In this document: piece after piece, positions 5,258 through 23,007 of the stretch
Numbering within the stretch: the stretch's first letter is position 1
Layout of the letters: every line of letters starts with the position of its first letter
DNA from: Candidatus Iainarchaeum sp.
Lineage (GTDB): Archaea; Iainarchaeota; Iainarchaeia; Iainarchaeales; JAZDEL01
Length of the DNA stretch: 32,000 nucleotides
Assembly (NCBI GenBank): GCA_043808785.1
Contig: JAZDEL010000001.1
Location: forward strand, 1-32,000
Direction of reading: 5' to 3'
Made by a program: the position numbers and the translations under genes
Notes under the pieces: model-generated
Seen by the model: only the letters and a program-made list of their open reading frames with translations
Told to the model about the DNA's origin: nothing
The model's database searches: none

Positions 5258-5266
5258 CTTTATATT
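5258..5266 (+). promoter_or_regulatory. TATA-like box of the HD-domain gene
   Basis: ctttatatt is centred about 28 nt upstream of ATG 5290, consistent with a leaderless transcript. Confidence 0.45.
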
Positions 5267-5289: not shown

Positions 5290-5880
5290 ATGACTAATGA
5301 TAAACCTGCCCTTTTCGCAGAGGTGCAACGGTTATTCAAAGGAAGGGTTGGAGCGCACGGCTTCGACCATGTTTTGCGCGTGTGCAAATACGCTTTAGAG
5401 ATTGCCGAAGAAGAAAAAGCGAACAAAAAAATTGTCGAGGCAATGGCCTTATTGCACGATATTGTCCGTTATGAGGGCGAGAAAGAAGAGGAAAGTGTTG
5501 CCGAAACTTTGGATGCGGCAAAAAGCATTCTTGAACGCACGGGCGGTTATTCTGCGGCTGAAATTCGGCATATTCTTGACGGCATAAAATCGCACTCTCT
5601 CCACTCAGAAATAAAAAGCGAGCCGCAGACTATCGAGGCGAAGATATTGTTCGATGCCGACAAAATGGATTCTGTCGGGCCGATTGGCATAGCCCGCTGG
5701 TTTACGACAATGGCGCCTAAAGGCATTCCGATTGGAAAAAGTGCCGAAATCTACCTCAGGACAATAAGGAGTATGGAAAAAAAACTTGGCGGCAAGCTCT
5801 ACACCAAAACCGCAACAAAAAAAATCAAAAATCTTGAATACACAAAAGAGTTTATGAAAGAGGTTATTCGGCAAATTTAA
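5290..5880 (+). CDS. HD-domain metal-dependent phosphohydrolase
   Basis: HGFDHVLRV ... LLHDIVR ... FDADKMD (the H...HD...D signature). TATA-like ctttatatt at 5258-5266, about 28 nt before the ATG. Confidence 0.85.
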   Translation: MTNDKPALFAEVQRLFKGRVGAHGFDHVLRVCKYALEIAEEEKANKKIVEAMALLHDIVRYEGEKEEESVAETLDAAKSILERTGGYSAAEIRHILDGIKSHSLHSEIKSEPQTIEAKILFDADKMDSVGPIGIARWFTTMAPKGIPIGKSAEIYLRTIRSMEKKLGGKLYTKTATKKIKNLEYTKEFMKEVIRQI

Positions 5881-5891
5881 ATGATGCCAAA

Positions 5892-6365
5892 ATGCGAACT
5901 GCCCAAAAACAAACCAATTTAAGCGTTTCAGTCCCCTCATTTTTTATGGATGTTTATTTCGCAATTCTGGCTTGGGATGTCATAAAATCTCCTATTAAGA
6001 GGGGCATAGCCTTGGCATTGGCTGGCGACGAAAGCTACCGAACCCCGCTTGAGGTCTCGGTTATTGTCGAGATGAAGCAGGGCGTGACATATGGCACCCC
6101 TGAAATAACTGACGCGCTGCGCGAGATGAAGGACATTGGCGCGGTTGAACACCATAGGGGGGCTTACCGCCTCTCGAAAATGTGGGTTGATTCAATGATT
6201 GAGTTCTTTGAGAAAGAGAGTGTACGGGTCGAGAAGGTTGATGACAGCGAGGCATACTTTAAGGGGTTAGTTGAGCGCCTGAAAAAGGCGGGTTTTATTA
6301 AGAAAGACGCCGAGATTGTGAACGGCACGCTAAAAAAGAGTGACTTTGTGACTGGCAAAGGTTAA
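5892..6365 (+). CDS. Hypothetical protein, possible winged-helix DNA-binding domain
   Basis: ORF from the track. The segment TPLEVSVIVE...ITDALREMKDIGAVEHHRGAYRLS resembles a recognition helix plus wing. Weak assignment. Confidence 0.45.
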   Translation: MRTAQKQTNLSVSVPSFFMDVYFAILAWDVIKSPIKRGIALALAGDESYRTPLEVSVIVEMKQGVTYGTPEITDALREMKDIGAVEHHRGAYRLSKMWVDSMIEFFEKESVRVEKVDDSEAYFKGLVERLKKAGFIKKDAEIVNGTLKKSDFVTGKG

Positions 6366-6396
6366 TAATAAAACCAATTCCTTCGCAGTTCTGTTA

Positions 6397-6801
6397 ATGC
6401 CTGAAAACATCAAAAAAAGGAAAAATGTGCCGAAGGCAATCCAGCTCAAGGTCTGGATGCGCGACAACTGGCACTGCCGTTACTGCGGGAAGCCGATGTT
6501 TTACGGGCCCGCGCTTAAACTGCTGGGCAGCCTGAACCCAAACCACAAATATTTCCACCCTAACGGAAAAGACGGAGAAATGCTTTCATTATTCGCAAAA
6601 GGCTGGGCAAGCGTTGACCATGTGAAGCCGTTCTCGCGGGAAGGAAAGGATGATATTGAAAACTACGTCTCCGCCTGCTGGGGATGTAACCTGAAATATG
6701 GCGACAGGGAGATTGGCAAAGGCAAGCTGAAACCGAGGGAAATCGTCGAGAGCGATTGGGACGGGTTTTACGGGTTGGTTGGAAAAATCAAACAACCGTA
6801 A
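6397..6801 (+). CDS. HNH endonuclease (stand-alone)
   Basis: WHCRYCGKPM ... VDHVKPFSREGKDDIENYVSACWGCNLKYGD, i.e. CxxC ... DH ... N ... CxxCN of the HNH beta-beta-alpha-Me fold. Confidence 0.85.
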   Translation: MPENIKKRKNVPKAIQLKVWMRDNWHCRYCGKPMFYGPALKLLGSLNPNHKYFHPNGKDGEMLSLFAKGWASVDHVKPFSREGKDDIENYVSACWGCNLKYGDREIGKGKLKPREIVESDWDGFYGLVGKIKQP

Positions 6802-6858
6802 TTCGTCAATAGACGAAACAAATAAAAGGATTTGCGGAGAAATCATTATTGTGTTGGA

Positions 6859-7188
6859 ATGGCGAAATTAAAGATTATAGCGGAATTTAAGAAAACCCCC
6901 CTTGAAAGAACAAGGAAAAATATCGCCAATGCGCCGGGCACAAAAGCCAAGGGCATCGGAATCTATGTCCTTTACCTCGGGGGGAAGATTGTGTATGCGG
7001 GAATTTCAAAAAGAAGCATCAGGTCCCGCCTGAAGGACCACAACAAGAGCGCTAGGAAGAAGTGGGACTCGTTCAATTACTGCAAACTTTCGCCCGATTA
7101 CAGGGGGTTCCTTACCCTTGACGAACTGGAAGAAGTTTTTATCAAGTTGCTCAACCCGAAGTTCAACATCATGAAGAAGAACGGGTAA
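6859..7188 (+). CDS. GIY-YIG domain nuclease (stand-alone, about 109 aa)
   Basis: GIGIYVLYLGGKIVYAGISKRSIRSRLKDH ... LEEVFIKLLNPKFN, giving GIY, Y-A-G, a conserved Arg, and the E...N tail. The track ORF starts at TTG 6832; ATG 6859 is preferred. Confidence 0.7.
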   Translation: MAKLKIIAEFKKTPLERTRKNIANAPGTKAKGIGIYVLYLGGKIVYAGISKRSIRSRLKDHNKSARKKWDSFNYCKLSPDYRGFLTLDELEEVFIKLLNPKFNIMKKNG

Positions 7189-7192
7189 TTGC

Positions 7193-7408
7193 ATGGACAA
7201 ATACGAACTCGCTGGCAAAATCGTTCTTGCGCCCAGCCCAGGCAAAATGATGAAACAAATAAGGGAAGAACGCGGAATCGGTCAGGGCGAACTTGCGAAG
7301 AAACTTGGGGTTAAGCAGAGCACGCTGAGCGACTACGAGGCGGGAAGGCGCGGGAGCCCGGGAACAGCGGTTGTGAAAAGGTTTGTCCAAAAAATTACGG
7401 AGGGGTAA
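7193..7408 (+). CDS. XRE-type helix-turn-helix DNA-binding protein (71 aa)
   Basis: MKQIREERGIGQGELAKKLGVKQSTLSDYEAGRR is a classic Cro/C1 HTH. Confidence 0.75.
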   Translation: MDKYELAGKIVLAPSPGKMMKQIREERGIGQGELAKKLGVKQSTLSDYEAGRRGSPGTAVVKRFVQKITEG

Positions 7409-7411
7409 ACT

Positions 7412-7519
7412 ATGGGTGAATTGCCAAAAGTAAAAATCGGAAAGAACGAATACTACGTCGACGATAGGCTGAAGCAGTTGAGGAATACGAAAAATCCGCA
7501 TGATTTTAAGGATTATTAA
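7412..7519 (+). CDS. Unannotated 35-aa micro-ORF (MGELPKVKIGKNEYYVDDRLKQLRNTKNPHDFKDY)
   Basis: My own translation. The ATG is 4 nt after the HTH stop and is preceded by GGAGGGG (7399-7405). It fills the gap between the HTH gene and the 241-aa gene. Below the track's length cutoff. Confidence 0.3.
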   Translation: MGELPKVKIGKNEYYVDDRLKQLRNTKNPHDFKDY

Positions 7520-7552
7520 GGGCAGCATGCGCGGAAGTTCTGGGGGCATTAA

Positions 7553-8278
7553 ATGAATGTGCGGGACTTTATCTCATCAGAACGGGCGCTAATAAACATC
7601 ATAATCCGAACAATTCATAATTTCCACCAAAATAGAAAAGATGTGGAAAATCTTTCCTTCTTCAATTTTTGGGTAACAAGTGTAGCCAACACTAGGACAT
7701 TCATGTATGCAGAAGCATACGGTTATGCAAAGAAGCAACGCTTGGAATTATATCTGTCTGGCAATTATTTGGGTTCGGCATTGGTCGGGGTATATTCAAT
7801 TGAACAGCTTCTGAAAAGCATTATTTCGCTAAAAAAAACAGAAAAGGAGATGGATGCCATTGACGAAAAATCGCTGGGTTTCACAATTGGCGTTTTGAAA
7901 GAGTATGGGGAATTCAGAGGGGGCGAAGGGGCGAAGATAATTGAAAATTTATACAAACTCAATAAGGAACTCAGAAACCAATTAGTGGTGCATTCAAAAG
8001 GGAAAAAACTATCTGAAAGGCATTTTGATGCAATTCATAAGGGCAATTTGTTAGATACAGAAAGAATTTTAGCAGATACTTTCAAAGGGATTTCATTTGA
8101 TGTGCTTATGTTAATTTCGCAGATTGAAACGCAGCTTGATTCGATGTTTTGTCAGAGGTTGGGGGGTCGCCACGAAAAAGGCAGAATATCAACAATTATG
8201 CGGATAAGGCCAATTGAAGATATTCTTAAGGATATACGCGAAACATGCCCCGCATACGCTAAAGATCGTCAGGTTTGA
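7553..8278 (+). CDS. Hypothetical all-alpha protein with an Rx5H (HEPN-like) motif
   Basis: ORF from the track. ELRNQLVVHS fits the HEPN Rx4-6H signature with a polar residue after the Arg. The rest looks helical. No other motif recognised. Confidence 0.55.
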   Translation: MNVRDFISSERALINIIIRTIHNFHQNRKDVENLSFFNFWVTSVANTRTFMYAEAYGYAKKQRLELYLSGNYLGSALVGVYSIEQLLKSIISLKKTEKEMDAIDEKSLGFTIGVLKEYGEFRGGEGAKIIENLYKLNKELRNQLVVHSKGKKLSERHFDAIHKGNLLDTERILADTFKGISFDVLMLISQIETQLDSMFCQRLGGRHEKGRISTIMRIRPIEDILKDIRETCPAYAKDRQV

Positions 8279-8501
8279 ATTTGTATTTGCACTCCTTGCA
8301 AACACCCTCAACCTTCTCGTTTTTCCTGTCGGTTCTACTGCTGGCGCTGCCAGTGGAGCCCTGAACCCTGTACGTTTGGGAAAATGGCGGGAACCAAAGA
8401 ACCTCGTTTTTTGTGCCGCACTCTGGGCACATTGCCTCTATTTTTTCGGGCTGCTGGGTTCCGCGGGTGAAGAGTTCGTAAGACATCAGACCCCTTACCA
8501 T
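8259..8501 (-). CDS. Zinc-ribbon protein (80 aa), last gene of the hsd-linked cassette
   Basis: CPECG...(about 37 aa)...CKECKYKF. The ATG directly abuts the upstream stop (TAAATG at 8499-8504). Confidence 0.6.
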   Translation of the reverse strand: MVRGLMSYELFTRGTQQPEKIEAMCPECGTKNEVLWFPPFSQTYRVQGSTGSASSRTDRKNEKVEGVCKECKYKFKPDDL

Positions 8502-8868: not shown

Positions 8869-9486
8869 TTAATACTCCCTCGGGGCTACATTGGCTTGTT
8901 GTTGTGCAGTTTCTATGAGAACTGCTTGTTTTGGGTCTTTGATTGAAAATTGGATTGTCTCGTCCACTAACAGCCTAACCCTGCCATCTAAGTTTTCTTC
9001 AGTCAAATTTAATGTCTGTTTAAGTGTTTGCCGTTCTGCATCTTTGATTTCAGATATCTTGGCATCAATATCTTTCTTTATTATAAACTCACCGATACCC
9101 CTAGCCTTTGTCAAAATTGTTGCCCCATAAGGAATTCTCCGTGAAACTAGAATGCGTACCCCGACGTAAGTTCCTATAACGTCCCCCTGCTCCCGCTGAT
9201 AGTTTGGCTTGAATTTGGCCCTATCTAGCCAAAAGAACTTATGGCTATCCTCGCTGTTTGTTATAATCAAATCAGCGTTTGGCAGTTTAGCAAGCCCTTG
9301 GTCTAATAATTTCCCAAAGATTGTTGCAGCAAATGGATTTTTGTCTTCTACAATTTCAGAGAGTGTATTCTCTTCTTTTATGGCTTGCAAAATGCTTTCA
9401 ATCACGAGTTTTATCTCACTCTCTTCCATAGGGTCTGCATACGTTTTAGGAATGGGTTTCCAGTCGTAATGAATGTAGCGAGGCAT
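8869..9486 (-). CDS. Orphan soluble protein (205 aa)
   Basis: ORF from the track. The start is 1 nt after the stop of the upstream 505-aa gene. No recognisable catalytic or binding motif. Confidence 0.7.
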   Translation of the reverse strand: MPRYIHYDWKPIPKTYADPMEESEIKLVIESILQAIKEENTLSEIVEDKNPFAATIFGKLLDQGLAKLPNADLIITNSEDSHKFFWLDRAKFKPNYQREQGDVIGTYVGVRILVSRRIPYGATILTKARGIGEFIIKKDIDAKISEIKDAERQTLKQTLNLTEENLDGRVRLLVDETIQFSIKDPKQAVLIETAQQQANVAPREY

Positions 9487-9487
9487 T

Positions 9488-11005
9488 CTAACATACCATT
9501 CTTTGTTTGTTATTGAATTTGTCCCAAGTTTTTATGAATTTTACTGCGGCATCCGTCGTTTGTTTGAATTTCCTTTTTTTGAAAAATCTTCTCGTAACTG
9601 AGTTTTTCACCAGCGCCCTAATCTTCATTTCAATTTTCTTTTTTCGTGTTTTCAATATTCCGGCATTTTTGAGGTCAAAACTTTTCGGTTTATCTTTTTG
9701 TTGAAACTGTTTCTCAATTAGCGTGGCATCCTGCCAGACTTTTCGAATCTTCCCTAAAACAGGTTTCTTGATTCGTGCATGCGGATTCGCAAAAAATATC
9801 GATTTAGAAAATTCGTGCTCCCAAAACAGTACGCCTAATATGCTCTGTTCGTTGGTTTTTTTAAAAACCTCGTGCACCATCTCACGTAGCACCCCCAAAT
9901 AATCCCGAATGTTAAAAAGGGAGTTATCTGTGTATCCCTTGAACAGCGTGTGGTTGAAGTGGACACATATGATGGGGTTATGTTTGCCCTTTAATTGCCC
10001 GTACTCAATCTTGCCCTTTATTAGTTCAGCCAGTCGGCCGAGTAAATATTCCATTATTATTGTTTGTGTAATGGATGGAAAAACAAACTCATCTTGAATC
10101 TCAACTATTCGGTGTTTTGCAGGGAAATATGCCACACTAACAATGCAATTGTCATCTATTTTTTTAGCAGATGTGTTTTTCAGAAAAGTCAAGCCTTCTG
10201 GGGAGGCACTCAATTTGGATAATCTGGCTCCAAACTCGGAATAATATTTAAACACTTCATTATAGTCAAACAGATTTTTTTTGGGGTCATTAAATTTCTC
10301 CACGTGAAACCCACCATACTCGATTAGAGCAATGGGCCATAGTGCCGCAGTGTCTCTCTGCAATAAGGGCATTATGTGTTTACGATCCATTTCTTTGGAG
10401 CTGTCCCGCAAAAGGTCAGTCCTAACGGTTAAGTTCAGGCCAGCATTTTTTGGAATTCTCTCTAATAATTCCTTTGCAATTGTTTGCAAGCCAGCCTTTA
10501 ACTCTTTATTGGGCTTGCCTTCCCCCAAACCAGTCAACTCGATATTGAATTTTATGCTCTCAATGGAAAACTCAAAATCGTTTTTAATGCCCTTCGAACT
10601 TTCATAAGCAACGTCTCTGATGATTGGGCTCTTCAGTAGATTTGATTGGAAAGTTAATTCAGACAAGGCGGATAATGTTTCTGTGTTGTCAAATTGTTTC
10701 ATCCTTCCTCTTAAATTTTCTTTTGTCTGTTTATTGCGGCTTGCAATTTCAAATTTTGTCAAAACCTTTTCTGCTTCGCACAACAGATTGTATGAAAGTG
10801 ACCTGTTGCCTTCTCTGTATGCGGATGCTGCAATATTTAGAAACACATTTGAGCCGTATTCCCTTTCGGAAAACATTGAAAAGTCGTCTACATATTTCCT
10901 TAAAATTGGAAATTCTTTAATTTGCTGTTTGCCGTTGGCTAAATGCTCCTTTTCGTAGTCTTTATTCTCGGAGACTGTCACAATGACCGTGTTAACGCCC
11001 GCCAA
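9488..11005 (-). CDS. Orphan soluble protein (505 aa) with a strongly basic C-terminal tail
   Basis: Long ORF in an AT-rich region where long ORFs rarely arise by chance. No P-loop, nuclease, methylase or RT motif seen. The last ~80 aa are K/R-rich (KTRKKKIEMKIRALVKNSVTRRFFKKRKFKQ). TTG start is uncertain. Confidence 0.75.
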   Translation of the reverse strand: MAGVNTVIVTVSENKDYEKEHLANGKQQIKEFPILRKYVDDFSMFSEREYGSNVFLNIAASAYREGNRSLSYNLLCEAEKVLTKFEIASRNKQTKENLRGRMKQFDNTETLSALSELTFQSNLLKSPIIRDVAYESSKGIKNDFEFSIESIKFNIELTGLGEGKPNKELKAGLQTIAKELLERIPKNAGLNLTVRTDLLRDSSKEMDRKHIMPLLQRDTAALWPIALIEYGGFHVEKFNDPKKNLFDYNEVFKYYSEFGARLSKLSASPEGLTFLKNTSAKKIDDNCIVSVAYFPAKHRIVEIQDEFVFPSITQTIIMEYLLGRLAELIKGKIEYGQLKGKHNPIICVHFNHTLFKGYTDNSLFNIRDYLGVLREMVHEVFKKTNEQSILGVLFWEHEFSKSIFFANPHARIKKPVLGKIRKVWQDATLIEKQFQQKDKPKSFDLKNAGILKTRKKKIEMKIRALVKNSVTRRFFKKRKFKQTTDAAVKFIKTWDKFNNKQRMVC

Positions 11006-11028
11006 TATTTTCTTACGAATGATTCTGT

Positions 11029-11373
11029 TTATTTTCCTCTTTTTGCATTAAATAAATATTCTTTTTTACAGTCGTTGCAATAAAACCTGACTTCATGTTT
11101 TGTTATTTCCACATTTTTTGATTTGCAAGTATCGCAACAAATATCCGGTTCTGGCACAGGAAAAATGCTTCTTTTGAAAATGGCTCCGAGAATGCCGTTT
11201 CCCGCAAGAAAGATGGCTGCTGGGGGGACTAATGATATGGAAAGCCCGCCAATAAGAAAACTTGCAAAAGGTAGCCCAAAAATTGCGTTAACCAACACAA
11301 CAAACCAGCAGAACAATTGCAACGGAATGCCCACAACTTTTAGGGGAAGGCTGAAAACCAACTTTTTTTCCAT
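11029..11373 (-). CDS. 3-TM membrane protein with a C-terminal zinc ribbon
   Basis: Hydrophobic N-terminal two thirds, then CCDTCKSK...(13 aa)...CNDCKKEY. The track ORF starts at TTG 11409, but ATG 11373 overlaps the stop of the upstream 55-aa ORF (TAATG), which favours MEKKLVF... as the start. Confidence 0.65.
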   Translation of the reverse strand: MEKKLVFSLPLKVVGIPLQLFCWFVVLVNAIFGLPFASFLIGGLSISLVPPAAIFLAGNGILGAIFKRSIFPVPEPDICCDTCKSKNVEITKHEVRFYCNDCKKEYLFNAKRGK

Positions 11374-11540
11374 TAGCGCCACCTCAAAGGGGTTCTGCAT
11401 GAATTGCAAATGACGGCGTTCTTGGGAATTTCAGCTTTGCAAACTGGGCATTTTGGTTTTAATATTTCCGCCAAAAGAGCTAATCCGATAGCCCCTAGCA
11501 CAAGACCAGTCAATAATTCCATTGCTTCATCATTGTCCAT
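11373..11540 (-). CDS. Unannotated 55-aa TM + zinc-ribbon protein
   Basis: My own reverse-complement translation: MDNDEAMELLTGLVLGAIGLALLAEILKPKCPVCKAEIPKNAVICNSCRTPLRWR. The ATG at 11540 immediately follows the hsdS stop codon (11541-11543). Its stop overlaps the next ATG. Below the track's length cutoff. Confidence 0.5.
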   Translation of the reverse strand: MDNDEAMELLTGLVLGAIGLALLAEILKPKCPVCKAEIPKNAVICNSCRTPLRWR

Positions 11541-12686
11541 TCAACTCACCAACTCTCCGGAAAACGCTTTAACCAAAACTGATTTGGGCAGAAAATATAG
11601 TTGCGATTCCATTTTTTTAATTTCAGATTCTATCAATTCGCCTTTTGATTTGATTTCGGTTAATTTGCAGACAATTTTCTTTTGTTCGCTTTTGGGCGGA
11701 AATCTAATGGCATACTTTGATATTTTTTGAAAGGAGGTTCTTGGCAATTGGACCCCTGATGTATTTGCGGATGCAAAAGATACGAATCTGTCTGAAAGTA
11801 GCAAATAAAACAAATATTCACCTTCAATTTCTTCTGAAGGAATTAGCGGAATCAAATCTGTCGAAACCGCCCCAGAAAAATCAGCATAAAACGTCTTATT
11901 CAAATAAGGCCTAAGTTTCCCATAAACAACATCTCCTGGGAAAAATTTATTTTTTGTACTCTTTAAATCAGGGTTCTTAATTTGTGTTATAACTCTTCCT
12001 TTTTTTGACTCGATATGTTCGAATCCAACGTAATTAGTTATTTTTTCTTTTTTTGGGTCAATTTTATCTTTTCTGACTTTAACTAACTCACCTAACGGTT
12101 TTTCAGACCAACCCGCGGGCAAATCTCTGGCATAATGCATTAACCCAGATATTGCTTTTTGCATAATTTCCGCATGTTGCTTTTTCACCGTTTCATTTTC
12201 TTTTTTCATTTCGTCGTATTTTTCAAAGAACGCGTCAAGCTTGGCAACGATTTTTTCTTGGACGGGGAGAGAGGGAACGGGGACTTCTATCTCTAACAAT
12301 TTGGGTTTTGTGATATGTGTCATCCCTGTGCCGTGTGTCTTTTTCTTTATGTCTTCTAAGATATGCTTTATCAAATAGTAAAAATAATTTTTTTTGATAA
12401 TTTTCTCATTTGGAATAACCTTAAAGATGTGCTGGTTGAGAAGTGCATCTCCTTCGTCCCAAATAAAAATATCCAATGTAGCTGACCACGCCAAAAGCAA
12501 ATCGCCATTTTTTATCAAATGTTTTTTTTCATAATCTCCCGCATAATAATTTACTACGTCCGTAGAGTTGGTCAAATTTTGAATACGGATTATTGGTAAG
12601 CCTTTCTTGCCCCATTCACTTGGTTTGAATGCCCTGCCATTAATGTAATCTGCAACTTCCCTAAGCGTTTTAATTTCCGTTTCCAT
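11541..12686 (-). CDS. hsdS: Type I restriction-modification specificity subunit
   Basis: Two target-recognition halves separated by conserved helical spacers (LPVQEKIVAKLDAFFEKYDEMKKE... and PPKSEQKKIVCKLTEIKSKGELIESEIKKME...). Overlaps hsdM by 17 nt. Confidence 0.9.
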   Translation of the reverse strand: METEIKTLREVADYINGRAFKPSEWGKKGLPIIRIQNLTNSTDVVNYYAGDYEKKHLIKNGDLLLAWSATLDIFIWDEGDALLNQHIFKVIPNEKIIKKNYFYYLIKHILEDIKKKTHGTGMTHITKPKLLEIEVPVPSLPVQEKIVAKLDAFFEKYDEMKKENETVKKQHAEIMQKAISGLMHYARDLPAGWSEKPLGELVKVRKDKIDPKKEKITNYVGFEHIESKKGRVITQIKNPDLKSTKNKFFPGDVVYGKLRPYLNKTFYADFSGAVSTDLIPLIPSEEIEGEYLFYLLLSDRFVSFASANTSGVQLPRTSFQKISKYAIRFPPKSEQKKIVCKLTEIKSKGELIESEIKKMESQLYFLPKSVLVKAFSGELVS

Positions 12687-14076
12687 TGTTCAGCACCTGC
12701 TCAATTTCATCAAGATAGCCCGCAATCTTTTCTTGGCTGTTGCGGATGTTTTGAATTATTTCTTCTGGCGTTTCAAGCTCGCCATCGTCAAGGCTTTCAT
12801 CTTTGAGTAAGATAATGTCGAGGTTATACTTGCGCCCCTCTATTTCCTTTCTTAAAAATGATTTGAAGCGTTCCGTTTCGGTGCGCGGGCTCGTTCCGTT
12901 CGGGTTTGAGCCAAAGGCCTTTTCAAACTCGGCGAACATTTCCTGAGTTAAGGGGCGCTCCTTTTTTGTGACGCCCGCAATATTGGTTCGATTGTCATAA
13001 ATCCAGACTTTTTCTGTTTTTGCCCCCTTTGTGAAGAACAAGACATTTGCCTTGACCCCTTGGGAATAAGGCGAAAAGGTTCCGTGAGGCAGCCTGAGAA
13101 CCGTATGCAGGGTGCAATCCTCCATCAGGTTCTTTATGACCTGGCTGGCAGAGTGTTCCTCAAACAAAACATTATCGGGCAAGATAATCGCACACCTGCC
13201 GCCAGGCTTGAGAATAGTTACGCAGTGTTGCAAAAAGTTAAGCTGCTTGTTGCTGGTTTCAATCGTGAAATCCTCTCTTTCGGGTGCCTCGCCCGCGCCC
13301 TTTGTCCCGAATGGGGGGTTGGTCAAAATGCAGGAATATCTTTTATTGGGGTCAGGCTCGGCGATTGAATCGCCCAAATGAATGCCGTCTTTTATCCCGT
13401 GCAGATACAAATTCATCAGCGCAAGCCTTCTCGGGCGCTCGACCAATTCCGTGCCAGAATATGTCTTCTCCTTTAGCCTTTGCAATTCTTCCCTCGGAAT
13501 TTCCGCGCCGCCCTTTGTCTGTCCTATAAGCCATTCGTACGCCTCAACCAAAAACCCGCCAGTTCCGGCGGCTGGGTCGTGAACTGTAAGCCCCTTTTCT
13601 TTAAGCGGATTTGGTTTCATTACTTTGACAATTGACTTTATCAAAATTCTTGGCGTGAAATATTGCCCCGCCCCTTTTTTGGCTTCCGAGGCGGCTTTTT
13701 CTAGCAAGCCCTCGTAGGCCTCCGCCTTAACGTCAACCCCTAAAGCGCTCCATTCGGTTTCGTCAATAAGACTGATAAGTTTTTTCAGATTCACAGGGTT
13801 ATTAAAACGGGAAAGGGCTCCAGCAAATATGTCGCCAAGCATCCCTTTTTCTTTGCCCAGATTCCGCAATAAGTCCGAGTAGAATTCAGTTAGTTCCGTT
13901 CCACTTTTTTCTTTCAGTTTGCCCCAGCTCCACTGCTTCGGTATGTCTTGCCCTTTTTCCTCACCCATTTTAAGGAATAACAAAAACGTCAGTTGTTCTA
14001 TGTAGTCACCGTAGTCTATTCCATCGTGGCGGAGGATGTGGCAGAACCCCCAAAGTTTTTGCACTATGTTCGTCAT
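12670..14076 (-). CDS. hsdM: Type I restriction-modification N6-adenine DNA methyltransferase subunit
   Basis: HsdM N-terminal domain (LWGFCHILRHDGIDYGDYIEQLTFLLFLK), QYFTPR, motif I DPAAGTGGF, and motif IV LTNPPFG. Confidence 0.95.
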   Translation of the reverse strand: MTNIVQKLWGFCHILRHDGIDYGDYIEQLTFLLFLKMGEEKGQDIPKQWSWGKLKEKSGTELTEFYSDLLRNLGKEKGMLGDIFAGALSRFNNPVNLKKLISLIDETEWSALGVDVKAEAYEGLLEKAASEAKKGAGQYFTPRILIKSIVKVMKPNPLKEKGLTVHDPAAGTGGFLVEAYEWLIGQTKGGAEIPREELQRLKEKTYSGTELVERPRRLALMNLYLHGIKDGIHLGDSIAEPDPNKRYSCILTNPPFGTKGAGEAPEREDFTIETSNKQLNFLQHCVTILKPGGRCAIILPDNVLFEEHSASQVIKNLMEDCTLHTVLRLPHGTFSPYSQGVKANVLFFTKGAKTEKVWIYDNRTNIAGVTKKERPLTQEMFAEFEKAFGSNPNGTSPRTETERFKSFLRKEIEGRKYNLDIILLKDESLDDGELETPEEIIQNIRNSQEKIAGYLDEIEQVLNNGNGN

Positions 14077-16736
14077 CTTGCCATCGCCTCATTGAACTGC
14101 TTAAGCAAAGGCTCAAGTTTGCCGTTGAAAATTTTATCCGCCTTTTTCCATGAACCCCGCCTTGCGAAAATTGGCATCTCTTCGAAATCCTCCTTCTCAA
14201 CCGCAAGGTTCGTAACCATGTGGTTCTTGATTAATTCGAGCCACTGCACCTGTTCGGGCGTGAATTGTTTCCCTTTGGTTACTTTCTCAATCGCCTTTGC
14301 AACTCTCTCCTCGGCAGTAAGCAGGGGCTCATTTTTCGCTGCATGCTTGATTATGGAAATAATGTCCGCCAGTTCGTTGTGGTATGCCCTGCGCAGGTTA
14401 TCTTCGGTGAAACGCTGCGGCGTCTGCTCGAGTTTCTTCCTCAAGTCGGTCAGAGGTTCGGTGCCCCAGCCTTTGGGTCTTTCAAGAAGGATTTTAATTG
14501 CCTCGATTTTCTCGGGGTTTTTCTTGACGAATTGTTCAAACTCTTTCAGGTAGTCAACAGGCTTCAACTCCCTGCCATCATTCGTTCTGAAAACATATTC
14601 TGATGAAACCTCATCCTTTGTTTCATGGGCGACAAGGAAAACCTTTTGCGCCTTCGGATAATTGTGTAAAACGTCCTGAAATTCCTTGTTTTCAAGAATC
14701 TTTATCGTGCCAACAAAGTCGGTTTCAAGCCTTTCAGGCAATTTTGAGGCAAATACTCCTATATCGCCTTTCTCTATAAATTTCTCAAACAGCGGAAATG
14801 CCTCGGCGCTCATGCTTTTGGAAATTCTGTGCATCCTCTTAATCAGGCAGGTTGTGTTGTATTTTCTGTCTTGGTTATTATGGATGGCTTTGATAATCTC
14901 CTGCATTGTTCTGCCAGGCTTGTCGGGCGCCTGGCTTGTGAAGTCGGTTATTTTGTTAAAGTATTCCAGAAGCGTTCCGTCAAAACAGTCAAATGCGGTA
15001 AAGTGGGTTTTTCCTATTTCATCGCACGTTCTTGTCCCGCGCCCCATCATTTGCGTAAATAATATCCTCGATTTTACGGGGCGCATGAACACGATATTTT
15101 CAAGCGCGGGAATGTCGATGCCCGTTGAAAGCATATCGACAGTTACAACCACGCCCGGCTTCTGGCGGTTTCTGAACTCGCGGATTCTCTGCAGTGGGCG
15201 GTCAACGTTTGGGTTTCCCGTAATTTTCTGCACAAAATCGTCGCCCTTCCCAAATAGTTCCCTGCAAACCCGCACAATCTGGTCGCAGTGAGATGCGTGC
15301 GGCAAATCACCCACCGCAAAAATAAGGGTTTTGGGGAACCTGCCGAATTCCTTTTCCTGGTTTTTTATATATTTGGCAACTTCTTTCAGAATCTTCCTGT
15401 TGCTGTCGGGTGAAGTTATCTCCTTTTCGATTTTTACAGGGTCAAATTGCCGTTCGTCCTCCAGCTGGTCGAGAACCTCTCTGCCTGTTTCGGTATCAAT
15501 CATCCCGACTTTTTCGTTTTCTTTAAGGAAAATTCCCTTCATCCTCACGTTTGACGCAATCTTTACTTCATCAAAAGGAACCAAATAGCCGTCGTTGACC
15601 GCTTGCTCGTAATCATAGCGGAACACAGGCGTGCCAAAATATGCGGTGGTGTGCGCCGCGGGTGTCGCAGTCAGCCCTATCTTCACTGCATTAAAATGGT
15701 TCAGAACCTCGCGCCACTTGCTTTCTTCCGTTGCGGTGTAACCGCGGTGGCATTCATCCGCGATTACAATGTCAAAAGCGTTTATTGGAATATTAAGTTT
15801 TTCTGCATCAAATTCAGTTTCCTCGCTGGGCTCATCCTCAAAGCGCGATTCCTTCCCGAAGATGTTTATCCTCATCCTCTGGATTGTTGAAACGTAAACA
15901 AACGCAAGGCCCGGCTGCGGGTGCTCGAGGTAATGCGAAGGCAGTTCCTGTGGGTTGAACTTGAAGTCATCATCAAAGTCATCCTTGTGCATCCTCTGGC
16001 TGTAAACCTCGTATAATTTGTCGAACTTCTTTCCTGGCTCGGGCTCGAAAGTTTTGAATGCCCTGACTGCCTGTGCAGCCAGCGCCCTCCTGTCAACAAG
16101 GAAAAGAATTCTCTTGCCATAGTTCGATTTCATCAGGCGATAGATTTCGGAAATTACGGTGTATGTCTTGCCTGTTCCTGTAGCCATTGCAACCATCATG
16201 TTGCGCTTATTTTTCCTCAAAGAATCCTCGATTGCTTTTGTTGCATCAATCTGGTAGTATCTGAGCCGCGGGTGGTCGTTTGGGTGCTTTTCAAGCAATT
16301 CCAGAGCTATTTTTGGATTCTTTAAAAGGAGTTCGTTTATTGCGGAGGGCGTGTGGAACTTGGCAACCTTTTCTGAATAACTCTCGGCATTCCGTAAGTC
16401 TTGGAACCAGATTATTTCGCCGTTTGTGGAATAAATGAATGGCACTTTTAAGCCGTTGAAATCGAACGGGCTATTTTTTACTCCGCGCGCATACCGTTGA
16501 GCCTGAACAAGCACGTTTTGCGGCCCGACGGAAAGCTTTTTTGCCTCAACAACTGCAACAATCAAGCCGTCAATAAAAAGCGCATAATCCGCAGGGCCCT
16601 CTTTGGTGTCGAACTCTCCAACTGCAAAGGCGCCATTTTCGGGTATCTTGTCGGTTGGCTTCAGCACCTTCCAGCCGCTCTCTTTCAGTTTAGGGTCAAT
16701 AAGGGCATAGCGGGTTTGGCTCTCGCTGGGTTTCAT
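14073..16736 (-). CDS. hsdR: Type I restriction enzyme R subunit (nuclease-helicase)
   Basis: N-terminal PD-(D/E)xK (ADYALF...VAVVEAKK). SF2 motifs AMATGTGKT, ADECHRG, LTATP, QMMGRGTR. Long helical C-terminal domain. ATGA overlap with hsdM. Confidence 0.95.
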   Translation of the reverse strand: MKPSESQTRYALIDPKLKESGWKVLKPTDKIPENGAFAVGEFDTKEGPADYALFIDGLIVAVVEAKKLSVGPQNVLVQAQRYARGVKNSPFDFNGLKVPFIYSTNGEIIWFQDLRNAESYSEKVAKFHTPSAINELLLKNPKIALELLEKHPNDHPRLRYYQIDATKAIEDSLRKNKRNMMVAMATGTGKTYTVISEIYRLMKSNYGKRILFLVDRRALAAQAVRAFKTFEPEPGKKFDKLYEVYSQRMHKDDFDDDFKFNPQELPSHYLEHPQPGLAFVYVSTIQRMRINIFGKESRFEDEPSEETEFDAEKLNIPINAFDIVIADECHRGYTATEESKWREVLNHFNAVKIGLTATPAAHTTAYFGTPVFRYDYEQAVNDGYLVPFDEVKIASNVRMKGIFLKENEKVGMIDTETGREVLDQLEDERQFDPVKIEKEITSPDSNRKILKEVAKYIKNQEKEFGRFPKTLIFAVGDLPHASHCDQIVRVCRELFGKGDDFVQKITGNPNVDRPLQRIREFRNRQKPGVVVTVDMLSTGIDIPALENIVFMRPVKSRILFTQMMGRGTRTCDEIGKTHFTAFDCFDGTLLEYFNKITDFTSQAPDKPGRTMQEIIKAIHNNQDRKYNTTCLIKRMHRISKSMSAEAFPLFEKFIEKGDIGVFASKLPERLETDFVGTIKILENKEFQDVLHNYPKAQKVFLVAHETKDEVSSEYVFRTNDGRELKPVDYLKEFEQFVKKNPEKIEAIKILLERPKGWGTEPLTDLRKKLEQTPQRFTEDNLRRAYHNELADIISIIKHAAKNEPLLTAEERVAKAIEKVTKGKQFTPEQVQWLELIKNHMVTNLAVEKEDFEEMPIFARRGSWKKADKIFNGKLEPLLKQFNEAMAR

Positions 16737-16760: not shown

Positions 16761-19073
16761 TTAAAATCCTTGCTTTTGGCTGTTTTCAAACAATTTCCTT
16801 ACCTTCCCCCCCACCTCAGTCCTCGTCAGCACCTCCCCATACTGCGCATACTCCTTCTTCAGTTCCTTGTCCGTAACAACAAAGAACCATAGTTTGTACC
16901 TTTCATTCAGCGCCCTAACCTTCTCCTCAATCTGCGCCTTCTTCTCCGCAACTGAGCCTGTTTCAACCTCCACCGCAACCAGCACATTCAGCCCCTTGAT
17001 ATGGCCTGTCCTGTTCGGCGCAATAAAGGTGATGTCCGCCTCCTTCGTGAACTTTACTGAAACAGTGTCCGTATATTTCCTCAACTCGTCCGCAATCAAC
17101 TCAACCAAAAAAGCGTGCTTGAGCGATTCCTTCCCCGCTGGCTTCTTAATCAAATACGCCTGCCCTCTCCCTTCCCCAAGCCCGGGCTGCCTTGATTCGA
17201 CGAAACCCTGCGCCTTCAGGAACTTTACTTGGTCTTCATTCAAATCCTTGAGCGCGTAATATCTTTTCTCCAAATGATATGGGGAAAAATCCTCCTCCTT
17301 TTTCTCAGCCATTCCCTTAAGCACCTTCTCGCGCATCCGTACCTCGTCCGGGTTTGTCGTTATGAGTTCATGTTCCTTCTCCGAAGCGACAACCCTCAGA
17401 GGAATGTGGTCGTTCATGGCAAACAGCAAACCTTCCCCCTGCGTCGCGGTCAACAGAAAGCCCTGCTCCTCCTCGTTCAAATTGAACTTCTCGCTCAGCT
17501 CCTTCATAACAGCGGGCTCCTGCCTGAGCAAAAGTTTCCACGCAGTGTTTGCAAGCGTTGTAGCCCCTGCCTTGGAACTCAGCAAATCGTTAACCTCCTG
17601 CGTTATTATCACAAGCCCAAGCCCGAACTTGCGCGCGGTCTTAATCATTTCAAAAATATACCTTGAGTGCTGCCCGTAGCGCAATAAAGTCCACGCTTCA
17701 TCAATCACAAGAAGTTTCCGTTCCCTGCTGGCGTGCATCTTGTTCCTCACGAACTCCAGAATCAAAAACATCATCACTGGCTTAACCTGCGAAGGCATCT
17801 CCGCAATGTCAAAAGAAATAAAATCGTTCTCAAGGTCAAGGTTCGTCTGCCTGTTCAGGAAACTGAACGAACCTTTCGCGTAAATCCTAATCCTGTTAGC
17901 AAGCGCGTCATATGTCATGCGCTCAATCTTGCTCCCGCCCTGCTTCTCCTTCTCAATCTCGTTGTACAAATCCTCCATCACGGGCGGCTTTTTGCCCCAT
18001 GTGCTTTTGTTGTTCGAGATAATTCCCTTCTGCTCATAAACACTCTGCACGCACTTGTCAAGGATGTTCTTCTGAACCTCGGAAAGCTCCCCGCACATTA
18101 TGCGGAACAAGTCCATCAAAATCAGCATCTTCTCCCCGAAGTCCTGCCCCATCAAATCAAATGGGTTTATGATTGTCTCGCTCTCCCTGCTTATCTTCAC
18201 AACCTGCCCGTTATACGTTTTCACGACATCCGTGTACTCGCCCTGCGGGTCTATGATGTTAACCTTAACCCCCTTCAGCAAATTCCGCAGAATGAAAAGC
18301 TTGCAGTAAAAACTCTTCCCCCCTCCCGAAGTGCCAAGAATTAAACCATTGTAGTTCGTCAGCCCGTAAGGGTTGATAATTATGGGAATATTGTTCTCCT
18401 TGTTCAGCCCGACCATAATGCCTTCCTCATCCATGTTAAGAAAGGCAGAAGTGAAAGGAAAGCACGCTCCAAGCGCGTGCGAGGTAATATTGCGCGTGAC
18501 ATTCAGCCTGTCCCTCTGCAGGGGAATAACCGACTGCAAAGCCTGAAGCATCCGCAGGCACGGAGTTTTCGGGATTATCATTATTGAATTGAGTTCAGAT
18601 TCAATTTTCCTGCTCAAAAGTTCAAGCTTCTCCCGCGAAGGGGCGCGCGCGTTCACATAAAGCGCGATGTTGAAAAGCTTCTCCTCCCCTTTCTGCAATT
18701 TCTCCAGCGTGCCGAGCGTGTCCTGATGCTGAACCCTCAGCGAGGGGTTTACAATGCCCTTCATCTCCGCCGACATAATGTCCGATTCTTGCTTAACCAA
18801 TTCCTGATTTAAGCCGGTCATAATCGTGTCTATGTTCGCGGGCGTGATGAACATGCTCAAATCGAAATCCCCCTCGCTCGAAACAATAGAGCCTAACCAG
18901 CCCTCCCTAATCAGCCGCGGATATCCGACAGCCATAACCACGCGGTTGTATTGGCTGTTAACCCGTACGCAGTCGAACTCGTTCTTTATGTAGTGCGGCC
19001 TGAGCAGCGGCTGGAGGTCATGCTTCAGCGAAACGCTTTTGCCATTCCCGCGCTTAAAGAAACTTAGCAACAT
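16761..19073 (-). CDS. VirB4/TraC-type type IV secretion ATPase with a ~170-aa C-terminal PD-(D/E)xK-like extension
   Basis: LILGTSGGGKSF (Walker A, nt 18312-18335), VNIIDPQGEY, LLVIDEAW (Walker B), VIITQE. The C-terminal extension has KHAFLVELIADEL ... EADITFI ... LVAVEVETG. Confidence 0.9.
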   Translation of the reverse strand: MLLSFFKRGNGKSVSLKHDLQPLLRPHYIKNEFDCVRVNSQYNRVVMAVGYPRLIREGWLGSIVSSEGDFDLSMFITPANIDTIMTGLNQELVKQESDIMSAEMKGIVNPSLRVQHQDTLGTLEKLQKGEEKLFNIALYVNARAPSREKLELLSRKIESELNSIMIIPKTPCLRMLQALQSVIPLQRDRLNVTRNITSHALGACFPFTSAFLNMDEEGIMVGLNKENNIPIIINPYGLTNYNGLILGTSGGGKSFYCKLFILRNLLKGVKVNIIDPQGEYTDVVKTYNGQVVKISRESETIINPFDLMGQDFGEKMLILMDLFRIMCGELSEVQKNILDKCVQSVYEQKGIISNNKSTWGKKPPVMEDLYNEIEKEKQGGSKIERMTYDALANRIRIYAKGSFSFLNRQTNLDLENDFISFDIAEMPSQVKPVMMFLILEFVRNKMHASRERKLLVIDEAWTLLRYGQHSRYIFEMIKTARKFGLGLVIITQEVNDLLSSKAGATTLANTAWKLLLRQEPAVMKELSEKFNLNEEEQGFLLTATQGEGLLFAMNDHIPLRVVASEKEHELITTNPDEVRMREKVLKGMAEKKEEDFSPYHLEKRYYALKDLNEDQVKFLKAQGFVESRQPGLGEGRGQAYLIKKPAGKESLKHAFLVELIADELRKYTDTVSVKFTKEADITFIAPNRTGHIKGLNVLVAVEVETGSVAEKKAQIEEKVRALNERYKLWFFVVTDKELKKEYAQYGEVLTRTEVGGKVRKLFENSQKQGF

Positions 19074-19242
19074 CTCCCCTCCTTTTTTTCACAATTTCCG
19101 TGAATTCCTTCTCATTGTTCTTAATCTCTTTTATTTTTACCCCGAACAGAACCCTCGCCACCGCGGCAAGAATGCGGTTCATCCTCCCGAGCTGCCGAGA
19201 ACTTTCTATTATCGCATCCTCAACCTTCTTGTCCATGCGCAT
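19054..19242 (-). CDS. Possible small protein (about 60 aa) between the VirB3-like and VirB4 genes
   Basis: A shortened version (from MRMDKK...) of track ORF 19054-19353. It would fill an otherwise non-coding 146-nt gap and overlaps the VirB4 start by 20 nt. No motif recognised. Confidence 0.3.
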   Translation of the reverse strand: MRMDKKVEDAIIESSRQLGRMNRILAAVARVLFGVKIKEIKNNEKEFTEIVKKRRGDVAKFL

Positions 19243-20188
19243 TTTTTCCGCCAAATGAATCACCCCCTTTTGCCTTGCCGAATTCATCAAGAACCGTAAC
19301 AGCGGAAACGTAATCCCCGCCAGCCTCGACAAACCCCTCAAAATAAGACGCAAGCAAAGAAGTCAGTTCGCCCGTGCCGAGCCTTCTCGTGGAAAGGTTG
19401 CACGCCTTCAGTTTGCCTTGGCACAATTTGGCACGTATCGCCAATTGGTTCAGCGCAATTTCGCTATTCAGTTCATACGTTGTCTTCTGCTTTTCGCGCG
19501 AAAACAAATTCCTGAAGTTCACAAAAATATCCCGCAGAACATTCGCGGAAAAAGACGGCGAATACGGAATGATGATGTAAAAAAGGCGGTTCTTCACGGC
19601 ATTTTCCTCTATGAACCCACGCATGAACTCTTGGAATGAATTGAACTGCTCAAGCAACTGCTCCTTTTTCAGCGCCTTAACTTCGCCCTCCAAATGTGAA
19701 AGGTAGTCGTCAATCGAAAGGTTAACCGTGCGCATAACTATCTGTATCGGGAAATCAAGGGAGTTGAGGAAGTCGGAAAAAGCCCGCACAATCGCCCTCT
19801 GCTGTTCTTGCTCTAAAATCGAAAAATTAATAGGTGTGACCTGCACAACCGCAAGCATCCCGTCCTTCAGGTAAACAGTGTCATCTGATATCCTCTCGAC
19901 TTCTATGAACTTGTTTATCCGCGGGTCGAAATAGCCAGCCTCGCCGATTGAGGCTTTGAATGTCGCAAAGTTCTTCAGGTGCGTACCCAAGCCGAAAAAG
20001 GCGAACCCTGCGGCCAGCAGCGCGAAAAACACTGCGGCGGCAACCTTAATCTCAAATGGTAGCGCGGTTTTGAGGAAAACAACAGCACCCATGCCCCCAA
20101 ACAACCCAACCCAAGCAAGCTGGCTGAACGTGAGGTTGAACAGTATTTTTTCGCTGTATTTCAGGTTCTGCGGTATTTCGTATGCCAT
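19220..20188 (-). CDS. PrgI/VirB3-like membrane protein fused to a cytoplasmic VirB4-N-terminal-like domain
   Basis: The N-terminus MAYEIPQNLKYSEKILFNLTFSQLAWVGLFG plus two TM helices matches the PrgI-family signature (P..l....K..FnLT.rQl). It is followed by VYLKDGMLAVVQVTPINFSILEQEQQRAIVRAFSDFLNSLDFPIQIV, which resembles N-terminal regions of monoderm VirB4 proteins. Confidence 0.7.
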   Translation of the reverse strand: MAYEIPQNLKYSEKILFNLTFSQLAWVGLFGGMGAVVFLKTALPFEIKVAAAVFFALLAAGFAFFGLGTHLKNFATFKASIGEAGYFDPRINKFIEVERISDDTVYLKDGMLAVVQVTPINFSILEQEQQRAIVRAFSDFLNSLDFPIQIVMRTVNLSIDDYLSHLEGEVKALKKEQLLEQFNSFQEFMRGFIEENAVKNRLFYIIIPYSPSFSANVLRDIFVNFRNLFSREKQKTTYELNSEIALNQLAIRAKLCQGKLKACNLSTRRLGTGELTSLLASYFEGFVEAGGDYVSAVTVLDEFGKAKGGDSFGGKNAHGQEG

Positions 20189-20203
20189 TTTCTCAACCCC
20201 TAA

Positions 20204-22620: not shown

Positions 22621-22665
22621 TCGTTCACCTCTGTGGGGTGGGTGGGGGCGGAAAAGGCATTACGC

Positions 22666-23007
22666 CTATATTCCGCCCGTTCCTGATGCAGTAAGGAATT
22701 GAACCAAGGCAGGCGCAACCGCTACCAAAACAAGGCCGCCAACGCAACATGTAGCCGCGACCTTCGCGCCCTCCCTTGCCTGTATGTTCGAGCCGGCAAC
22801 CATGTATGCAACCGCGGCACCGAAGAACCCGAGTGTTGCGAATCCCCCGACTATGTACTGAACCAGCGTTATTAGGTTGTCAATTGGCTCCTTTATCTTG
22901 TCCATGTCCGCGCTCGCGGCAAAAACAGGCCCGAGCATAAGGAACACGGAAGCAAGAAAACACAAAATCCTTTTTCCGTCCAAAATGATTCCTCCTTTGA
23001 AGTTCAT
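22666..23007 (-). CDS. VirB2/TrbC-like (CedA1/TedC-like) pilin candidate
   Basis: 113 aa: signal peptide (..LMLGPVFAASA), then two hydrophobic helices joined by a short basic loop (LVQYIVGGFATLGFFGAAVAYMV - GSNIQAREGAK - VAATCCVGGLVLVAVAPALVQFL). First gene of the train. Assignment by architecture. Confidence 0.6.
   Translation of the reverse strand: MNFKGGIILDGKRILCFLASVFLMLGPVFAASADMDKIKEPIDNLITLVQYIVGGFATLGFFGAAVAYMVAGSNIQAREGAKVAATCCVGGLVLVAVAPALVQFLTASGTGGI

Follow-up and report, generated by a model that had tools for sequence, protein, structure and literature searches.

A candidate new HEPN-type protein family beside restriction-modification genes of a Diapherotrites archaeon, and an uncurated mini-protein family encoded next to it

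The first 32,000 nucleotides of contig JAZDEL010000001.1 of Candidatus Iainarchaeum sp. (assembly GCA_043808785.1; this whole stretch, positions 1-32000, is called the window here) encode, on the plus strand, a protein of 241 amino acids (aa) that is likely, judging from residue conservation and a predicted fold, to represent a new and very small family of the HEPN superfamily, one that keeps the full catalytic set of residues. This gene, referred to as the HEPN-like gene, follows a gene for a 71-aa helix-turn-helix protein (the HTH gene) and a 35-aa open reading frame (ORF; also called the micro-ORF, and its product the mini-protein), and a first-pass annotation of the DNA had proposed the trio as a toxin-antitoxin (TA) or abortive-infection (Abi) module. 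As laid out below, the HTH gene and the mini-protein accompany the HEPN-like gene locally and are not conserved alongside it, and the 35-aa ORF is a real gene of a widespread and uncurated mini-protein family, without a specific tie to HEPN proteins. The three genes, and the codons of the two elements of the proposed active site, are located as follows; the positions, lengths and spacings given for the trio by the first-pass annotation were all reproduced.

7193-7408, plus strand: 71-aa XRE-type HTH gene (MFH1224180.1)
7412-7519, plus strand: 35-aa ORF, without annotation in the source record
7553-8278, plus strand: 241-aa HEPN-like gene (NCBI hypothetical protein V1676_00070 of a Candidatus Diapherotrites archaeon metagenome-assembled genome, MAG, on a 214-kb contig; identical protein)
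7802-7816, plus strand: codons of E84-Q-L-L-K88 (Ex3[KR], predicted second HEPN active-site element; E84 invariant, Ex3[KR] in 11 of 12 family members)
7973-7993, plus strand: codons of R141-N142-Q-L-V-V-H147 (the Rx5H form of Rx4-6H; RNxxxxH in 12 of 12 family members)

A catalytic signature conserved in a rare family

One motif had been singled out in the 241-aa protein, ELRNQLVVH, as a fit to the Rx4-6H signature of HEPN ribonucleases (RNases). The motif is present as described, at residues 139-147, but it is not the lone match that it was taken for, as four matches to Rx4-6H are found, beginning at R19, R141, R156 and R202, and 73% of shuffles of the sequence hold at least one. Thus, in a single sequence, Rx4-6H is no better than chance, and the motif gains meaning only through invariance in homologues. 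A word-indexed search of 5.8e9 proteins returned the 241-aa protein itself and nothing else. An exhaustive phmmer search of 1.84e9 cluster representatives recovered six relatives (E-values from 2.9e-14 to 7e-5, 26-34% identity, 193-265 aa in length), and a profile made from these six added five further members, bringing the set to 11 distant relatives, with 20-32% identity to the query over the whole set. Phage and plasmid records held no tblastn match to the 241-aa protein.

In the family alignment (A2), made of the 241-aa protein and these 11 relatives and having a mean column identity of 36%, only six columns are invariant, Y72, E84, N137, R141, N142 and H147, and four of the six (E84, R141, N142 and H147) constitute the HEPN catalytic signature. 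The R and the H of the proposed catalytic pair (codons 7973-7975 and 7991-7993) are thereby found in every member, along with E84 and with the polar residue directly after the conserved R (N142, 12 of 12). According to Anantharaman et al. (2013; PMC3710099), Rx4-6H is the main active-site determinant of catalytic HEPN domains, the residue right after the R of the motif is a polar N, D or H, and a conserved acidic residue, typically in Ex3[KR], is placed upstream, in HEPN helix-2; these are the features conserved in the 241-aa family.

Predicted structure

Modelled by AlphaFold from its single sequence, the 241-aa protein gave an unusable result, with a predicted local distance difference test (pLDDT) value of 35. 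AlphaFold2 with the 12-sequence alignment produced a usable all-alpha bundle (mean pLDDT 74.1, predicted template-modelling score 0.71), with pLDDT of 85-92 over residues 51-100, and the elements of this model, with their HEPN equivalents, are as follows.

Residues 3-31: extra N-terminal helix, no HEPN equivalent
Residues 47-68: helix, HEPN helix-1
Residues 72-92: helix with E84..K88, HEPN helix-2
Residues 97-106: short helix, HEPN insert
Residues 112-145: helix ending at R141, HEPN helix-3
Residues 146-149: loop with H147, HEPN loop to helix-4
Residues 150-162 and 169-203: kinked helix, HEPN helix-4
Residues 204-241: C-terminal tail of low confidence

This order of helices matches the published HEPN scheme, as judged by secondary-structure order only; in that scheme an insert between helices 2 and 3 is frequent, and the motif is sited at the end of helix-3 or in the following loop (PMC3710099). 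The predicted fold agrees with the one that had been expected: the model is an all-alpha bundle, and its motif falls where published HEPN domains carry it, at helix 3 and the loop that follows. When the model was compared with structures in PDB by Foldseek, the highest probabilities were those of 2q00_B (0.84), 1o3u (0.72; template-modelling score 0.64 normalised to the target, root-mean-square deviation 4.7 Å) and 2q00_A (0.63), with every other match at 0.35 or below, and both 2q00 and 1o3u are listed as HEPN structures (PMC3710099). A Foldseek comparison with viral structures returned nothing meaningful. Taken together, the invariant R, N, H and E84, the bundle model and the best Foldseek probabilities to 2q00 and 1o3u support the original assignment of the 241-aa protein to HEPN.

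Genomic contexts of the family

Every retrievable context of the relatives was considered, eight of these being independent, and all ORFs of 13 loci were scanned locally with phmmer and hidden Markov models (HMM). The contexts are as follows, each relative being given with its locus or loci.

P0003 (L130): shares 1 nt with the stop of a Type I hsdS gene; a 75-aa zinc-ribbon gene begins 15 nt later
P0012 (L003-L005, three samples): separated by 5 nt from an upstream HNH_3 gene, before which stands an N6/N4 DNA methyltransferase; a DUF1016 nuclease is next
P0009 (L001, L002): after SLFN_AlbA_2, a HATPase_c_3 (MORC-type) ATPase and a PLD-SNF2 helicase
P0004 (L006, L007): stands by itself in an archaeon, flanked by TFB and a Na/H antiporter
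P0002 (L128, L129): between a 75-aa membrane protein and a LAGLIDADG-like gene
P0006 and P0008 (L009 and L008): on short contigs, with unrelated small ORFs upstream

The recurring theme of the family is residence in or beside restriction-modification (R-M) or defence genes. One example is L130, with its succession of hsdS, HEPN-like and zinc-ribbon genes, another is presented by L003-L005, with a methyltransferase, an HNH gene and the HEPN-like gene, and a third by L001, with the PLD-SNF2 helicase and the MORC-type ATPase; the window itself is a fourth. Such residence in or next to R-M operons is also recorded for AbiU2, AbiJ and several other HEPN families (Table 1 in PMC3710099). Archaeal marker or Diapherotrites-like genes are found in two of the homologue contexts (L006 and L130). 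As a separate observation, P0009 is preceded in both L001 (4607-5957) and L002 by a conserved pair of genes, for a 177-aa membrane protein and a 268-aa SLFN_AlbA_2 protein, and these two genes may represent an alternative set of local partners for this effector family.

The trio and its place in a seven-gene array

Upstream of the trio, and on the same strand, are four further genes and a promoter-like element, the latter read directly from the sequence.

5259-5265, plus strand: TATA-box-like TTTATAT, about 25 nt before the ATG of the HD gene
5290-5880, plus strand: HD hydrolase gene (Pfam HD, 3.6e-13)
5892-6365, plus strand: gene for a 157-aa protein
6397-6801, plus strand: HNH nuclease gene (Pfam HNH, 1.1e-10)
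6832-7188, plus strand: GIY-YIG nuclease gene (Pfam GIY-YIG, 1.6e-5)

With these, the trio makes up a compact plus-strand array of seven genes (5290-8278), in which the HEPN-like gene is the last and stands beside a Type I R-M operon. The gaps from the HD gene through the 157-aa, HNH and GIY-YIG genes to the HTH gene are 11, 31, 30 and 4 nt, the stop of the HTH gene is 3 nt from the ATG of the micro-ORF, and 33 nt separate the micro-ORF from the 241-aa ORF. The flanks that the first-pass annotation had described, two stand-alone nucleases (the HNH and GIY-YIG genes) and an R-M operon (hsdS/M/R, 11541-16736), are present, and the defence-island setting that it had proposed gains support from the Pfam-identified nucleases upstream and from the Type I R-M operon in the window. 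The TTTATAT element is, by its sequence, a possible archaeal promoter for a leaderless transcript of the seven genes (a sigma-70 promoter scan is not applicable to the window, the host being an archaeon), and it is plausible, indeed probable, that the HTH gene, the micro-ORF and the HEPN-like gene are co-transcribed in this genome.

The three ORFs share one reading frame, in which they are parted by TAA stops at 7406, 7517 and 7550, and we judge the common frame to be a coincidence, with a chance of about 1 in 9. The notion that the trio is one broken or read-through gene is ruled out, because these in-frame stops intervene (the first parts the HTH ORF from the micro-ORF, the other two part the micro-ORF from the 241-aa ORF) and because the N-terminus of the 241-aa protein is also where its homologues start.

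As to the HTH protein, it was rightly recognised in the first reading as XRE-type, the domain being genuine (Pfam HTH_31, E=1.6e-11; HTH_3, E=2.4e-11) and occupying residues 17-66 of 71; the rest is a 16-aa N-terminal extension. Its matches to the HTH models of the antitoxins HipB, Y4mF and MqsA are weak and below cut-offs, and it also weakly resembles the HTH domain of HigA. The protein is probably a transcriptional regulator of the seven-gene array, and an antitoxin role for it is unproven.

The rival explanation that retains most weight is that of a dedicated three-gene TA/Abi module, in which the HTH protein, the 35-aa protein or both would counteract the HEPN toxin while also autoregulating the operon. 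The genes of the trio are co-directional, adjacent and closely spaced, and purine runs resembling Shine-Dalgarno (SD) sequences precede the second (GGAGGGG, 6-12 nt before the ATG, so that the SD claimed for the micro-ORF is in place) and the third (GGGGG, 8 nt before the ATG). The micro-ORF and the HEPN-like gene are both low in G+C (0.37 and 0.38), and the weak likeness of the HTH protein to antitoxin HTH domains, as well as the placement of a small XRE-type HTH gene just ahead in a tightly packed array, recall the type II TA systems with XRE-HTH antitoxins (HipBA, HigBA, MqsRA). Moreover, HEPN toxins as a rule require an inhibitor, which is established for HEPN-MNT (MNT, minimal nucleotidyltransferase) and RnlA-RnlB. 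However, among the loci examined the arrangement is unique to the window. None of the 13 HEPN-family loci encodes a relative of the window's HTH protein or of the micro-ORF, so that such relatives are missing from all eight independent homologue contexts; none of the 118 micro-ORF-family loci described below contains a HEPN-like gene, and an XRE HTH similar to the window's occurs in only two of the 118, downstream of the micro-ORF and not upstream. Unlike in HipBA, HigBA or MqsRA, the pairing is conserved in no other genome examined, a third gene (the micro-ORF) stands between the HTH and the HEPN-like genes, and the putative toxin belongs to a different superfamily. The HTH protein, consisting of a DNA-binding domain and 16 aa, shows no obvious extra domain or toxin-binding module. 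Finally, its gene has a G+C of 0.53, unlike its supposed partners, and this departure hints at different histories and a mosaic origin, the values being noisy for genes this small. As the trio recurs in no locus examined, it is not a conserved module, and a dedicated TA/Abi function appears unlikely to us; the TA reading as such, and a local antitoxin role of the HTH protein or the mini-protein in this genome, stand unproven.

The Type I R-M operon and its zinc-ribbon gene

The genes on the other side of the HEPN-like gene are encoded on the opposite strand.

8259-8486, minus strand: 75-aa zinc-ribbon gene (MFH1224182.1, V1676_00075; annotated as 80 aa, with its end at 8501)
11541-12686, minus strand: hsdS (Pfam Methylase_S, 2e-40)
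12670-14076, minus strand: hsdM (Pfam N6_Mtase, 3e-62)
14073-16736, minus strand: hsdR (Pfam EcoEI_R_C, ResIII, HSDR_N)

The zinc-ribbon ORF (8259-8501) probably starts at M6, hence the length of 75 aa. Its product matches no family model beyond a weak HypA-like zinc-ribbon (E=0.024), and it has close relatives at two other loci, being 77% identical to the product of the gene directly after P0003 in L130 (1239-1466) and 87% identical to that of the gene directly after hsdS in L131 (1433-1660), a locus that has no HEPN-like gene. From these positions, the zinc-ribbon gene can be read as the one that usually closes the hsdRMS operon of related archaea, and its product may be an uncharacterised accessory of the R-M system, while the HEPN-like genes at that end of the operon are variable inserts, present in two of three such loci.

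These arrangements bear on another explanation, that the HEPN-like protein is itself an accessory of the Type I R-M system, perhaps with the zinc-ribbon protein as its partner or inhibitor. The tight succession of hsdS, HEPN-like and zinc-ribbon genes in L130 speaks for it, and so does the window, where the related zinc-ribbon gene abuts the HEPN-like gene and converges on it with a 20-nt overlap. However, in L131 the zinc-ribbon gene follows hsdS directly, in the absence of a HEPN-like gene, which disfavours it as a specific partner; moreover, the zinc-ribbon protein is encoded in none of the other HEPN-family loci, and it is far more conserved than the HEPN-like proteins (77-87% versus about 30% identity), so that it tracks the R-M operon and not the HEPN gene. 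We therefore hold the accessory explanation to be improbable. The 3' overlap in the window (8259-8278, HEPN-like gene on the plus strand, zinc-ribbon gene on the minus strand) is of note in its own right, as convergent transcription could couple the expression of the two genes.

In the window the HEPN-like gene lies 3.3 kb from hsdS, and between hsdS and the zinc-ribbon gene are four genes, encoding ORFs of 126, 505 and 205 aa and a DUF5658 protein. The three ORFs (8869-11409, minus strand; G+C 0.38-0.40) are extra relative to the arrangement in L131. None of them has a match in Pfam, and those of 205 and 505 aa have none in NCBIfam, PHROGs or PADLOC either; because of their low G+C and their position they are candidates for novel defence-island cargo. 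Type I R-M operons of these archaea appear to have, at their downstream end, an insertion hot spot for extra effectors.

The HEPN-like protein as a predicted RNase

Several observations weigh against placing the 241-aa protein among catalytic HEPN proteins. It has no match to Pfam, NCBIfam, PHROG or PADLOC models, PADLOC finds nothing in any of the 12 family members, and neither sequence nor profile models of curated HEPN families reach threshold for any member. The nearest approach is that of the closest homologue, P0002, to Pfam HEPN_AbiU2 (PF18734), a weak match over the motif region (E=0.011; 15.7 bits versus a gathering cut-off of 26.8), with the 11 other members giving no match to this model. 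Sequence and profile searches of PDB produce chance-level matches only, such as ClpS and OspC. The structural model is built on 12 sequences only, its pLDDT drops to 67-72 around residues 141-170, and a clustering of E84, R141 and H147 in space is presumed. The Foldseek matches to 2q00 and 1o3u have E-values of 0.4-1.4, with no match at or below 0.001, and helical bundles are known to yield noisy structure matches. Lastly, two of the eight contexts, the TFB/antiporter locus L006 and L128, are free of R-M or defence genes.

The lack of a significant match to any catalytic HEPN family, and the existence of HEPN families that are non-catalytic binding domains (PMC3710099), could be taken to mean that the protein does not catalyse and is a helical scaffold, or a HEPN-like domain that binds nucleotides or ligands, its R, N, H and E serving binding or structure, but the non-catalytic HEPN domains are those that have lost Rx4-6H (PMC3710099), and here R, N, H and Ex3[KR] are invariant or nearly so, so we give this explanation little credence.

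Among characterised proteins, the best parallels are AbiU2 and other solo Abi-type HEPN proteins (AbiJ, AbiD/F; PMC3710099), which are likewise single-domain, helical, of about 200-240 aa, equipped with Rx4-6H and an upstream acidic residue, and encoded in or beside R-M operons. Unlike AbiU2, no member of the 241-aa family reaches the Pfam cut-off or matches the PADLOC Abi models, the spacer between R and H is of five residues, and there is no counterpart of the Sel1-repeat partner that AbiU2 is reported to have. A further parallel is HEPN-T (PF05168, including 1o3u, TM0613; the PaREP1-type 2q00; and HEPN-MNT toxins), with the same up-down helical bundle as predicted here and the same motif placement. 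Unlike HEPN-T and HEPN-MNT, the 241-aa protein lacks sequence-level matches and an adjacent MNT gene (a nucleotidyltransferase domain is encoded neither by the window neighbours of the HEPN-like gene nor in the homologue loci), and it is about twice as long as HEPN-T, with the extra N-terminal helix (3-31) and the low-confidence tail (204-241).

With moderate confidence, we favour an explanation that combines the new HEPN family, a predicted RNase activity, a role in defence and a location at the side of R-M genes. The HEPN-like protein would be a metal-independent endoribonuclease, with a predicted active site in which R141, N142 and H147, where core helix 3 ends, would combine with E84 and K88 of core helix 2, and it would probably act as a dimer, as other HEPN enzymes do. 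By analogy with AbiU2 and AbiJ, the gene would be a solo Abi-type HEPN lodged in or beside R-M operons, and the protein a second-line (back-up) RNA-targeting abortive-infection or toxin effector stationed beside the Type I R-M operon. The array may be transcribed from TTTATAT (5259-5265), and the HTH protein would regulate it. The HTH protein, the mini-protein and the zinc-ribbon protein are all candidates for holding the HEPN-like protein inactive, with comparative support for none of them.

The mini-protein family

Relatives of the 35-aa ORF were sought with a degenerate DNA pattern encoding Y[YF]VDxRLxx[LF]Rx3NP, in which eight positions are forced and which, being exact, biases the sample; by our own calculation, with equal base frequencies, about two matches would be expected by chance in the 596-Gb genome set. 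The species-representative genomes gave nine matches, eight of them clearly homologous, metagenome contigs gave 109, and viral contigs gave none. The resulting 118 micro-ORF-family loci (L010-L127) comprise 91 distinct core sequences, with the consensus LPxVxIGxKxYFVDxRLxQLRNVxNPHDxIDF. Conservation extends to positions that the pattern does not force: in the 91 cores, position 21 is Q or E in 90, position 25 is V or I in 85, N24 is found in 69, D30 in 68, H29 in 67 and K11 in 59, and the upstream L and P in 58 and 55, respectively. The 35-aa peptide of the window carries these unforced conserved positions, and from this conservation and its membership in the family it follows that the ORF is a genuine gene. 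It was left unannotated in the source record, as NCBI numbering leaves room for one protein only between MFH1224180.1 (HTH) and MFH1224182.1 (zinc ribbon).

The family ORFs range from 35 to 323 aa. Carriers include archaea (a Micrarchaeota MAG and an unclassified archaeon), the Deltaproteobacterium NaphS2, Poribacteria and several Planctomycetota; one example is the 38-aa ORF MDYPRMLPIVKIKNKMYFVDERLKQLRNVKNPHDYIDM in an archaeal MAG (L013). The Planctomycetota members have a zinc ribbon fused at the C-terminus, and fusions to zinc fingers or ribbons are often seen in the family. Among the neighbours are genes of plasmid, integrative and conjugative element (ICE) or mobile type, for Cdc6/Orc1-type initiators, Replic_Relax, SSB, PcfJ-like proteins, AbiEi/AbiEii and PIN toxins, along with integrase-like ORFs recognised by ORF inspection only. 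Given the zinc-finger fusions and the replication and transfer genes nearby, the family may have a role on mobile elements that is regulatory or concerned with nucleic acids. That the family controls nucleases or defence, and that its member here is a direct inhibitor or a trigger sensor of the new HEPN RNase, which would make an undescribed type of three-part system, is a long shot.

No curated model covers the mini-protein. Pfam matched none of ten diverse family members, the family profile found no match in PDB, the 35-aa ORF padded to 40 aa gave no candidates in the word-indexed protein search, and its tblastn search against phages gave nothing. The nearest profile is the N-terminal half of T5orf172/MUG113 (GIY-YIG-like), with a weak local likeness of the form KIG...RLxQL...P (Pfam MUG113, E=0.02, 15.9 bits versus a cut-off of 22.3; PADLOC PDC-S57, E=0.0011). 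Unlike T5orf172/MUG113, to which the match is below cut-off and spans about 25 residues, the mini-protein family has strongly conserved YFVD and NPHD motifs of its own. The possibility that the micro-ORF is a decayed GIY-YIG/T5orf172 fragment is thus ruled out by its belonging to an independent conserved family.

Wider window

The G+C of the window changes in steps, being 0.53-0.55 from 24 to 32 kb, 0.36-0.40 from 9 to 13 kb and 0.42-0.49 in the remainder, which is consistent with mosaic or horizontally acquired DNA. Scans of the window for Rfam families, tRNAs and repeats revealed no RNA genes and no flanking direct repeats that would mark a boundary. Directly upstream of hsdR, on the same strand and 24 nt away, are genes resembling those of type IV secretion systems (16761-23007, minus strand), including the following.

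16761-19073, minus strand: VirB4/TraG-type ATPase
19220-20188, minus strand: PrgI-family protein
22666-23007, minus strand: TrbC/VirB2-type pilin

As these genes adjoin hsdR on the same strand, the R-M operon of this DPANN archaeon appears to belong to a conjugation-like or ICE-like cluster.

Implications

Overall, the locus presents what is probably a new family in a well-known superfamily, in a typical genomic setting, and it is not mechanistically surprising; the result is useful for annotating archaeal defence genes, and no new mechanism is established by it. The family of the 241-aa protein, if correctly placed, widens the scope of the HEPN superfamily while being invisible to standard annotation by Pfam, NCBIfam, PADLOC and PHROGs, and it is represented by about a dozen members among roughly 15 billion predicted proteins, at least some of them in DPANN-type archaea. 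The mini-protein family is the least expected by-product of the analysis and possibly the more useful one, as a domain of 35-40 residues that lacks a curated model, was passed over by gene calling in this record and yet is found at more than 100 genomic and metagenomic loci of both bacteria and archaea makes a concrete target for small-protein annotation.

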